Below are positions 160 through 23,935 of a stretch of 64,000 nt of DNA, one piece after another (positions within the stretch are counted from its first letter, which is position 1; each line of letters begins with the position of its first letter). The stretch is from the IMG/VR virus record IMGVR_UViG_3300032320_001622, positions 1,195 to 65,194 of that record. One strand, written 5' to 3'. The notes beneath the pieces were generated by a model. That model was not told where the DNA came from. It ran no database searches and saw only the letters and a list, made by a program, of their open reading frames with translations. Position numbers and translations under genes: made by a program. This DNA comes from a virus.

Positions 160-954
160 TTATTCTGTCTCCTGAAATGGATATTTCTGTTTATCTTCTT
201 CACTAAAATCTTGATTAAGTTTTCCTATAAAATCATTATCGTGTACTCTATGACACCAACCACAATATACTAATTTATTGGTTTTTACTGTTCTATATGG
301 ATCGTCAAGTGTAGGGAAATCTTGGTTATTGGGTTTTTCACTAGGTAAATAAGGTCCCAATCTCGGTATGGGAGGAGGAACGCCACCATCATCAAAAAAT
401 TTGTATGCGTCGTGTATAAATGCTTTATTTTTTACTATTGGATAAATTATATCCCATAAGAATTCTTGATCTATATTTTTTCTATTGTTGTTGATTTTTC
501 TGGAATAGTTATTTATTAATTGTTTAATATTTCCCAATATGTTATTTCTAACTCCCCACACACCACCCATTATTTTTACATTATGCGCGCACATATCTCT
601 AACTATATGAAAATCTTTATCGCTGCTTAACCACTGATCCACACATGCTTTGTCTCTCTCATTCAACAAACTATCCGCATCTCTGCTTATCATTGCATCA
701 TTTTTTGTTTTAGCATCTTCTGCGGCATAAAATCGCCAAAACATACCATTCCAATTTTCATCTTGAGATTGAAATATGATTTCGGTGTTATTTCTTTTTT
801 TAAGTTCGTCGATGAATATTTGTTTTACATTTGGAGAAATATAATATCGACATTTCCATTCTGGAAATATATCAGCAGCAATATCTGCATTTTTAATTGC
901 ATTTATGACATATAATGCTTTATTTCCCCAAAGAGAATAACTTATAATTTTCAT
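160..954 (-). CDS. putative glycosyltransferase (KIISYSLWG family)
   Basis: 264 aa; ISYSLWG start, MFWRF and SRDADS (DxD) motifs; paralog of 5016..5972; lies in the GT cluster. Confidence 0.6.
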   Translation of the reverse strand: MKIISYSLWGNKALYVINAIKNADIAADIFPEWKCRYYISPNVKQIFIDELKKRNNTEIIFQSQDENWNGMFWRFYAAEDAKTKNDAMISRDADSLLNERDKACVDQWLSSDKDFHIVRDMCAHNVKIMGGVWGVRNNILGNIKQLINNYSRKINNNRKNIDQEFLWDIIYPIVKNKAFIHDAYKFFDDGGVPPPIPRLGPYLPSEKPNNQDFPTLDDPYRTVKTNKLVYCGWCHRVHDNDFIGKLNQDFSEEDKQKYPFQETE

Positions 955-14564: not shown

Positions 14565-14634
14565 AAAGCCTTCCTTATGCTAGAAACATATTGATAAGTT
14601 CGACAAAAATGGTTCTTAATATGTATAAACAAAC

Positions 14635-14654
14635 AAACCCCCGTGAGGGGGTTT
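14635..14654 (-). terminator. intrinsic terminator after the tmRNA
   Basis: AAACCCCC-TCAC-GGGGGTTT followed by GTTTGTTT. Confidence 0.7.
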
Positions 14655-14659
14655 GAGCC

Positions 14660-14990
14660 AATTCAGATGCGGGATGGCCAATCCCCACTGCTTCAGGCAG
14701 CACGACGCATAGGTGCGGCGTTTAAAATTGCAACATTTTTTTAACGACACCTATTGCACGGTGACGGACATCTCCCTGTTACTTACTTGACGCCAGTCGA
14801 TTCTGTTCGACCCCGTAGTTAGTTGACACTATGATGGATTACACCATCTATCTTGCTTTGTCGGTCAATTACTAGATAGACCGTTTTACGCAAGCGCATC
14901 TCTTGTCAAGACCGCGTTTCCGTCAGAACGCCAATAGTGTCGAATGGAGTCGAGGGGATTCGCACCCCTGTCCTGATCGTCTTTCTTCTT
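14660..14990 (-). ncRNA. ssrA: circularly permuted (two-piece) tmRNA
   Basis: acceptor piece (AGGGG-TGCGAAT-CCCCT-CGACTCC-A, ending 14945) lies upstream of the coding piece that starts GGGGTCGAACAGAATCGAC at 14814; G3:U70 pair; pk1; tag AAPMRRAA* at 14719-14693. Confidence 0.9.
14824..14941 (-). ncRNA. tRNA-like structured element in the tmRNA intervening segment
   Basis: 8-bp closing stem GACACTAT/ATAGTGTC, D-like hairpin, long variable arm and T-like arm GATGG-TGTAAT-CCATC. Confidence 0.5.
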
Positions 14991-15006
14991 CAGATCATAA
15001 ATGTCA

Positions 15007-15387
15007 TTAGTATGTATTTTCCATTTCTGGCTGAAATGGATTATATTTCTTAGTAGGGTATTGGTGTTTCTTATACAAGGTGCCGTTGTTATTATTCAAC
15101 AACATTTTTGCTTGATTGTTGTTATGCGATTGAAGAACATCGACTTGAAGTTCTAGAACTTCGATCTTCTTTTGAAGACGCTCAATCTCAAGCAAACACT
15201 GATCGTTCTCGTCCTTGATGTCCTGCAACTTGTCTTTGTTGCAAGTCATCAAACTAGACACGATCAGGTTGGGATTATCGCTAATGAAAGTGACAGTATA
15301 TTCCCAGTTGTTGCCTGGACCAAGAAGTTTTCTCACATCACAGGAAAGAAAACCAAACTCATTTTCCGCTGGATTGGGATTGCTCAT
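15007..15387 (-). CDS. hypothetical coiled-coil protein
   Basis: 126-aa ORF with GAGGA RBS, in the run of minus-strand genes. Confidence 0.6.
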   Translation of the reverse strand: MSNPNPAENEFGFLSCDVRKLLGPGNNWEYTVTFISDNPNLIVSSLMTCNKDKLQDIKDENDQCLLEIERLQKKIEVLELQVDVLQSHNNNQAKMLLNNNNGTLYKKHQYPTKKYNPFQPEMENTY

Positions 15388-18943: not shown

Positions 18944-18945
18944 AA

Positions 18946-19033
18946 CGGACAGAGAAGGATTCGAACCCTCGAAGGCTTATAAAGCCTTATTCGTTTAGTA
19001 GACGAGCGCATTAGACCACTCTGCCATCTGTCC
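18946..19033 (-). tRNA. tRNA-Ser(ACT), rare A34 anticodon
   Basis: CTCGT-CTACTAA-ACGAA; long variable arm AAGGC..GCCTT; G73. Confidence 0.88.
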
Positions 19034-19037
19034 AAAA

Positions 19038-23863: not shown

Positions 23864-23935
23864 TGCCTCGGGTGGGTACTGCCCCCACATTCTTCACCTT
23901 AAAAGGGTGCTGCATTACTAGTCTGCCACCGAGGC
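23864..23935 (-). tRNA. tRNA-Lys(TTT) with atypical D and T loops
   Basis: acceptor GCCTCGG/CCGAGGC; GCACC-CTTTTAA-GGTGA; T arm GTGGG-GGCAGTA-CCCAC. Confidence 0.85.

Follow-up and report, generated by a model that had tools for sequence, protein, structure and literature searches.

Permuted, two-piece transfer-messenger RNAs (tmRNAs; Rfam family RF04321) are reported from Alpha- and Betaproteobacteria, cyanobacteria and aquatic phages such as Melnitz, and their precursors are described as being split by tRNA-processing enzymes, which remove the sequence between the two pieces (PMC11915505). According to the same published account, this intervening sequence is absent from the mature RNA, and the spacer of a two-piece tmRNA is usually regarded as discarded. 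The account is based on a survey of 97,179 tmRNA sequences, in which one permuted spacer is noted for an intact tRNA-Ala, called a "unique feature", and another for a repetitive element; its main text, as distinct from its supplementary tables, describes no conserved, covarying non-tRNA RNA in a spacer (PMC11915505). It was also the only source returned by a literature search on structured or tRNA-like RNAs in tmRNA spacers, a search that covered main texts and not the supplements of PMC11915505 and PMC9004378. Structured RNAs that are not tRNAs are otherwise known from the tRNA clusters of phages. Phage T4 makes two of them, RNAC or species 1, of 139 nucleotides (nt), and RNAD or species 2, of 119 nt. 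Both are stable; in the T4 record their genes come next after tRNA-Arg, 1 nt and 6 nt away (AF158101), and their roles are still described as unknown in the sources consulted (PMC3014915, PMC9697503). The present text concerns the spacer of a permuted tmRNA gene in an uncultured virus, IMG/VR record IMGVR_UViG_3300032320_001622. The window, that is, the whole stretch of DNA analysed, covers 64,000 nt of this record (positions 1,195 to 65,194). The spacer occupies the same slot as in the published permuted genes, and it carries a 118-nt tRNA-shaped RNA element that is better conserved than the tmRNA around it. This element is probably a separate, selected passenger gene for a small RNA, released by tRNA-processing enzymes, with the tmRNA loop acting as its expression slot.

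The host gene is called as a permuted tmRNA (tmRNA*) by ARAGORN at 14602-15036 on the minus strand. It is matched by RF04321 at 14693-15005 with 63.1 bits (gathering score 47). In the RF04321 alignment about 130 nt appear as an insertion in the loop closing the tmRNA acceptor stem, and direct reading of the sequence places this spacer at 14944-14815 (minus strand, 130 nt). Since it is flanked by the acceptor piece's 3' end and by the coding piece's G1 in a gene confirmed by the model, the segment qualifies as a permuted-tmRNA intervening sequence. The acceptor stem is genuine, because both of its strands change together in relatives (GGGGUCG/CGACUCC vs GGGACCG/CGGUUCC) with G3:U70 retained. 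Within the spacer, the following parts of the element are distinguished, the helices being taken from the minimum free energy (MFE) fold and their lengths given in base pairs (bp).

14824-14941, minus strand: nested tRNA-shaped RNA element, 118 nt (MFE fold, RNAalifold, covariation).
14941-14934 with 14832-14825, minus strand: closing stem, 8 bp, GACACUAU/AUAGUGUC.
14931-14914, minus strand: D-like hairpin, stem GCGUU/AACGC.
14912-14898, minus strand: anticodon-position hairpin, 5 bp, with the conserved 5-nt loop GACAA.
14894-14852, minus strand: long variable arm, CUUGC/GCAAG.
14883-14879 with 14866-14862, minus strand: inner helix of the variable arm, CGGUC/GACCG.
14848-14833, minus strand: T-like hairpin GAUGG-UGUAAU-CCAUC, 5 bp, flush with the 3' strand of the closing stem.
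14824, minus strand: unpaired A after the closing stem.

The predicted fold is considerably more stable than that of shuffled sequences. The MFE of 14941-14824 is -38.3 kcal/mol against a shuffle mean of -25.8 (z = -4.52), a value equalled by none of 200 shuffles; for the full 130-nt spacer z is -3.32, and one of 200 shuffles folds as well. When the whole 393-nt precursor is folded, the predicted structure of the element remains unchanged. The helices follow the order of a cloverleaf and the T-like arm is directly stacked on the closing stem, as indicated by MFE folding, RNAalifold and pair counts, and the same cloverleaf is independently predicted in the divergent versions L092 (z = -3.93) and L270 (z = -3.09). 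The original prediction, made from the window sequence, had described the 130-nt spacer as a closing stem with four hairpins. This description is borne out by the MFE fold, which also contains both helices claimed for the variable arm (CTTGC/GCAAG and CGGTC/GACCG).

Covariation in homologous spacers had been proposed as a check on this fold, and it is positive. For the phage tmRNA family, 46 instances with 27 distinct spacers were collected. They were found via the upstream 126-aa neighbour gene, exact-pattern scans of IMG/VR, one metagenome scan and one genome scan, and L269 and L270 were added by two more IMG/VR scans using motifs of the element (L numbers denote loci throughout). The resulting alignment, A3, contains 23 distinct versions of the element from uncultured phages, 97-136 nt long including flanks. 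Most of them are close to the window version, and five are informative. In L269 the closing stem reads GGUGCUAU/AUAGUACC. L092 has the closing stem GAUGCUG/CAGCAUC, the T-like hairpin GUGGG-UGCAAAU-CCCAC and a short variable arm, CCCG/CGGG. The helices GCUGA/UCAGC and GAAGG/CCUUC are found in L211, the helices GGUAAU/AUUACC, CCAGC/GCUGG and AUGGG/CCCAU in L270, and the inner helix CGGUU/AACCG in L100. With the originally predicted structure imposed on A3, 98.7% of 745 cells hold standard pairs. Both-sided (compensatory) changes occur at 14 of the 33 pairs, compared with 3.0 +/- 1.4 in shuffles (0/500 reach 14) and with 1-4 in a slid control, in which the 3' partners were moved by 1-3 columns. 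They are distributed over the helices as follows.

Closing stem: compensatory changes at 7 of 8 pairs.
T-like helix: 3 of 5 pairs.
Outer variable helix: 2 of 5 pairs.
Inner variable helix: 1 of 5 pairs.
D-like helix: 1 of 5 pairs.
Anticodon-position hairpin: 0 of 5 pairs.

The closing helix occurs in five different forms and the T-like helix in four, and every one of these is paired. RNAalifold, applied to a 21-sequence alignment without an imposed structure, recovers the same helices with a closing stem of 7 bp. The eighth closing pair is standard in just 18 of the 23 homologues, is broken in the other five and is omitted from the RNAalifold consensus; judged from the alignment, no more than 7 bp of the closing stem are therefore conserved. 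Both the fold and selection on the fold are considered established. These data bear directly on the view of the element as a tRNA pseudogene in decay, or as a remnant of the permutation, whose folding would be the chance property of a neutral leftover. Real tRNAs do land in the slot, namely the tRNA-Pro of L002 described below and the published tRNA-Ala (PMC11915505), and the L092 version is called a tRNA by ARAGORN at a 90% threshold. A neutral leftover is not, however, expected to show compensatory changes in five of its six helices, to keep every helix in all versions and to be conserved more highly than a functional tmRNA. Covariation largely refutes this view, which is left with very little probability. 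Descent of the element from a tRNA gene is possible, and it is decay that is disfavoured. The suggestion, contained in the original prediction, of a relic of how the permutation arose fares no better, given that the element is selected, is found outside tmRNA and has a history decoupled from that of the tmRNA.

The last point follows from a comparison of identities, which covered 20 genes with full flanks. In pairs of the window type, identity is 92.7% for the element against 80.1% for the mature tmRNA, and the element is the higher of the two in 131 of 153 pairs. The nested RNA thus proves conserved in relatives, in 23 versions and with a higher identity than the tmRNA. The window and L096 share 100% identity in the element and 71% in the tmRNA; between L092 and L172, the tmRNA is 94% identical and the element 52%. 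Because these two comparisons run in opposite directions, the history of the element is decoupled from that of its host tmRNA. The most conserved parts of the tmRNA are the flanking halves of the tRNA-like domain, from which we infer that these halves act as recombination arms and that the spacer is exchanged between phages.

The distribution of the element within the family is patchy. Among 37 distinct tmRNA genes, 22 contain the element and 15 have a loop of 6, 11, 12 or 13 nt in its place. On a tree of the mature tmRNA (35 genes and about 230 columns, with the shortened L109 and L116 excluded) the genes with and without the element interleave, as far as topology alone is considered. Such a distribution implies repeated loss or exchange. 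The short loop UUCGAC retains the first three bases of the element and would be the remnant expected from its deletion. Since 15 of the 37 genes do without it, the element is dispensable for the tmRNA. The opposite situation is encountered in L109 (105-235) and L116 (about 2680-2810), two contigs from different samples, in which the whole coding piece is lost, so that the sequence passes from just behind the element into the terminator region that L172 also has, and the promoter side, the acceptor piece and the element are kept intact.

These findings make it possible to assess whether the spacer is a cis-acting processing aid or clamp, which would join the tmRNA halves or recruit ribonuclease P (RNase P) or 3' processing and would have no function after excision. 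The geometry of the precursor agrees with such a role: the element begins exactly 3 nt past a tRNA-like 3' end in every version, its closing stem brings both acceptor strands close to each other in the folded precursor, and the tmRNA, which has no encoded CCA, requires exact 3' processing. However, the 15 genes with 6-13-nt loops, interleaved on the tree, manage without a clamp. The element also occurs outside tmRNA in L270 and stays intact in L109 and L116 despite the deletion of the coding piece, and its conservation, which exceeds that of the tmRNA and includes the loops, goes beyond what a clamp would need. A processing aid, one of the roles named in the original prediction, is disfavoured by the element-less genes and must be considered improbable.

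The interpretation as a passenger RNA gene receives further support from loci in which the element has other neighbours. In L270 it stands outside any tmRNA, behind a Gly-Thr-Tyr tRNA cluster, with a closing stem of 6 bp. It begins 3 nt (UUC) after a 96-nt tRNA-like fold, which in turn follows tRNA-Gly, -Thr and -Tyr. The permuted tmRNA of L270 itself lies about 700 nt further downstream of the element and has a different spacer. The element thus occurs independently of tmRNA genes. In L002 the spacer is 205 nt long and consists of the element, 6 nt, an intact tRNA-Pro(UGG) and 5 nt before the tmRNA G1; this tRNA, at L002:4552-4626, scores 66.1 bits in Rfam and is called by ARAGORN, and L007 and L120 are the same contig. 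The linker in front of the element measures 3 nt in all 23 versions (UUC in 22, UUA in L002). It resembles the junctions between tRNAs in the window, which are U-rich and 0-4 nt long. The element is present once only. Covariance model R1 gives it 156 bits and finds no second copy in the window, in the source record or in 81 related loci.

Two further structures were observed in L270. Its tmRNA spacer (732-829, minus strand) is about 96 nt long and folds well (z = -2.5), so that more than one kind of structured insert exists in phage tmRNA loops. The 96-nt fold at L270:1607-1702 (minus strand), located between a CTAAATA motif and the element, has a 7-bp acceptor-like stem and a GGG-UGCAAGU-CCC hairpin; it gives no tRNA match at E<=10, no ARAGORN call and only a noise-level match to RAGATH-21, with z = -0.5.

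In its position, the element resembles the T4 RNAs introduced above. It is similar to them in size and likewise stands directly after a tRNA-like 3' end, namely that of the tmRNA domain in the window and that of the Gly-Thr-Tyr cluster in L270. The sequence of T4 rnaC ends with a canonical T arm, directly followed by the 3' strand. In contrast to the window element, rnaC and rnaD are not located in a tmRNA gene. They share no detectable homology with it, and the global folds differ: across the T4 tRNA region R1 reaches at most 8.1 bits, and the 7.7 bits of rnaC are at the level of true tRNAs and of antisense noise. Its position and shape would place the element among the stable RNAs other than tRNAs that phage tRNA clusters encode. 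It is absent from Rfam 15 and moves between the tmRNA loops and tRNA clusters of abundant freshwater phages. It represents a new location and a new family among the tRNA-like stable RNAs of phage tRNA units, and offers a second system in which the role of non-decoding tRNA-like phage RNAs, a question standing since T4 RNAC and RNAD, can be approached.

The relation of the element to tRNA requires a distinction between topology and model. It is predicted to be an RNA of about 90-120 nt, laid out like a tRNA with a long variable arm. With class II tRNAs, including tRNA-Sec, it shares the order of helices and the flush stack of T-like arm and closing stem. Its T-like loop shows class II tRNA-like traits in all versions, with U as the first base, A at the fifth position and a G-C closing pair. 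Unlike class II tRNAs, it has a 5-nt loop (GACAA) at the anticodon position in place of one of 7 nt and without U33, a 5-bp D-like stem and a closing stem of 5-8 bp (5 bp in L211, 6 bp in L270, 7 bp in L092, 8 bp in the window). For this reason the 8/5 geometry of tRNA-Sec, which the original prediction had ascribed to the element, does not hold across the family, and neither a tRNA nor a tRNA-Sec model gives a match at E<=10. Searching with tRNA models at relaxed cut-offs, proposed as a check of that prediction, gave no Rfam match at E<=10 when the window spacer (14816-14944) was searched alone, a procedure adopted because overlapping matches of the tmRNA clan are otherwise suppressed. The L092 spacer produced noise in Rfam and no tRNA match. 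With ARAGORN at 90% thresholds, one of 21 versions is called, namely the whole L092 element with a poorly paired anticodon arm, and none of 420 shuffles; at 70% the calls are inconsistent, and 78 of the 420 shuffles are called as well. In summary of these scores, the element is a tRNA by topology, in the helix order of the long-variable-arm type, and not a tRNA by model.

Several observations weigh against the interpretation of the element as a selected, tRNA-shaped passenger RNA. The near-identity of the window-type copies could reflect recent horizontal spread and not constraint acting base by base. The covariation comes mostly from the five divergent sequences L092, L211, L269, L270 and L100, and the anticodon-position hairpin shows only one-sided changes (G-U to G-C and U-G to C-G) and one U.U break. 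No tRNA model accepts the element, neither Rfam RF00005 with its threshold of 29 bits nor ARAGORN, which at default settings calls none of 21 versions. The D-like loop contains GG in only 10 of 23 versions. The stack of closing and T-like stems measures 10-13 bp and not a fixed 12, so that ruler-type recognition by RNase P or RNase Z is less well supported. Finally, contigs from RNA libraries of three studies (X2, X3 and X5, one each, 194-212 nt, covering 14796-14968) hold the acceptor piece, the element and the coding piece uncut, and could represent either precursor RNA or DNA carry-over. These contigs carry about 20 extra letters on each side, which match a relative of the L095/L101 type, and their ends probably reflect strain branching.

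Two other functions that the structure might serve were considered. Several helices meet in the element at a junction, and some of its unpaired stretches (the GACAA loop, GUAAAA) are invariant. It could be a new ligand-binding aptamer or a self-cleaving ribozyme, and as such control or carry out the splitting of the precursor; a glutamine riboswitch has been reported within the tmRNA gene of the related marine phage Melnitz (PMC9004378). However, no riboswitch or ribozyme family matches the window spacer at E<=10, and L092 and L270 give only noise-level partial matches. Most copies have no downstream gene to regulate, and the existence of element-less tmRNA genes means that cleavage is independent of the element, which makes this explanation quite unlikely. 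The sequence of the element also contains an open frame of 26 codons from an internal AUG, MRLRKTVYLVIDRQSKIDGVIHHSVN in the window, so that a small protein gene might be envisaged. The start codon is missing in L102 and L104 as well as in the L092 frame; L001, L137, L211 and L270 have a shifted or shortened frame, and the position of the stop is unconserved; moreover, substitutions track helices and not codons. With its frame lost or shifted in several versions, the mini-gene was rejected, and hardly any probability attaches to it.

The 5' end of tmRNA is generated by RNase P, and a tmRNA or tRNA without an encoded CCA requires 3' trimming and CCA addition. If the spacer is a passenger RNA gene, the element would be co-transcribed with the permuted tmRNA and freed by the very cuts through which the tmRNA and the phage tRNAs mature. 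An RNase P cut at the tmRNA G1 (14815|14814) would free its 3' side. On its 5' side RNase P would probably cut as well, at the element's own G1 (14942|14941); alternatively, this side would be freed when the 3' end of the tmRNA is processed. The short tails would then be trimmed at the 3' end, with the closing stem protecting both ends. This processing route, and the release of the element as a stable RNA, are what we infer from the arrangement of the locus. Because permuted tmRNA precursors are split by tRNA-processing enzymes, whatever stands in the tmRNA loop would be released automatically, and the tRNA-Pro of L002 shows the phage lineage exploiting this. The locus would then be a concrete example of one stable-RNA gene nested in another, and it supports the idea of phage tRNA-processing units as general expression slots.

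By mode of production, the closest case may be mascRNA, which, like menRNA, is cut from a longer transcript (MALAT1 and NEAT1, respectively) by RNase P and RNase Z and is CCA-tailed (PMC8457004, PMC11693755). The likeness, as far as these sources describe it, consists in a tRNA-shaped module within a longer functional transcript, whose excision also makes the end of the neighbouring RNA, a feature that for the element is put forward by analogy. In contrast to the element, mascRNA and menRNA are eukaryotic, measure about 58 nt, do not have a long variable arm and have experimentally shown processing. Concerning function, the invariance of the loops GACAA and GUAAAA points to a specific partner. 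Cleavage of tRNA-Tyr by host defences, also within the variable loop, is reported (PMC13096335; PMC12673091), and by analogy a decoy role for the element is conceivable. More broadly, and only as a tentative proposal, the element might be the founding member of a new family of tRNA-mimicking phage RNAs which, once released, act in trans, either as decoys or inhibitors of host tRNA-targeting defence nucleases or as binders of a tRNA-handling host factor. Such RNAs would be a functional counterpart of T4 RNAC and RNAD, and tmRNA loops and tRNA clusters would be their interchangeable launch pads. If a decoy for tRNA-directed defences were indeed involved, RNA-based counter-defence would be added to the picture of phage tRNAs.

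The collection of relatives involved several filters. The metagenome and genome scans yielded 146 loci, of which 123 were dropped for want of a matching acceptor 3' strand within 450 nt and 23 were kept; one of the latter, L268, looks like a chance match. Many matches to patterns of the tRNA-like domain were dropped on inspection as ordinary tRNAs or other sequence. L129 and L170, also among the 23, match the same 19-nt pattern of the coding piece and represent another, probably bacterial type of permuted tmRNA with an encoded CCA and an unstructured-looking spacer of 28 nt. The 216-aa neighbour gene led to 80 fetched loci, most of them without a nearby tmRNA, and ARAGORN found a tmRNA in 4 of 84 loci. 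RF04321 scored above its cut-off in none of five larger related records. Applied to 100 loci, R1 found one copy, in L134, which is cut by the contig end; loci L209-L268 were screened by regular expression and not with R1. In three element-less records R1 found no copy elsewhere, these records being only 17-27% complete. Among isolated phages, a blastn search in distant mode with the tmRNA region gave zero matches, and the matches of the 840-aa neighbour protein were confined to four Melnitz records, with 28% identity across 18% of the query. PHROGs was uninformative on the genes adjoining the tmRNA.

The remaining features belong to the host gene and its surroundings. The source record is a 65-kb fragment of an uncultured virus with an estimated completeness of about 29%, and the minus strand of the window contains 12-13 tRNA genes and one tmRNA according to ARAGORN and Rfam. 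The tmRNA gene is divided as follows.

14945-15005, minus strand: acceptor piece, the 3' half of the tRNA-like domain (RF04321 alignment and sequence).
14968-14954, minus strand: T arm of the acceptor piece, with GGGG at 14968-14965, loop UGCGAAU at 14964-14958 and CCCC at 14957-14954.
14952-14946, minus strand: acceptor 3' strand CGACUCC, followed by the discriminator A at 14945.
14942-14944, minus strand: UUC linker from the tmRNA discriminator to the first base of the element.
14815-14823, minus strand: single-stranded tail (ACUAACUAC), the 5' leader of the coding piece (sequence).
14626-14814, minus strand: coding piece, with the 5' acceptor strand GGGGUCG starting at 14814 (ARAGORN, Rfam alignment).
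About 14719-14693, minus strand: tag frame, AAPMRRAA* (ARAGORN).
14655-14634, minus strand: strong intrinsic terminator with U tract, which ends the unit (terminator scan).

The acceptor piece ends without an encoded CCA, with ...CGACUCC-A at 14945 followed by UUCG, and CCA is encoded neither by the tmRNA nor by the phage tRNAs. Tails similar to ...AAAC(C)UAC precede the tmRNA G1 in relatives with and without the element. The terminator scan found no terminator-like site on the minus strand within the spacer. The tag frame is short and ends in ...AAPMRRAA in the window and in ...PMRMAA in many relatives. Among the tRNA genes, a thirteenth at 23864-23935 (minus strand) reaches 48 bits in Rfam and is not listed by ARAGORN, and a tRNA-Ser with the anticodon ACT is called by ARAGORN at 18945-19034 (minus strand), the same gene being present in L002 (888-979). 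Upstream of the tmRNA, motifs resembling T4 late promoters are found, TATAAATA in L087, L089 and L115 and CATAAATA in L106 and L122, both about 10 nt ahead of the conserved start of the acceptor piece. At the same promoter-like position, the window clade carries a diverged ATACATAC (15005-15025 in the window).

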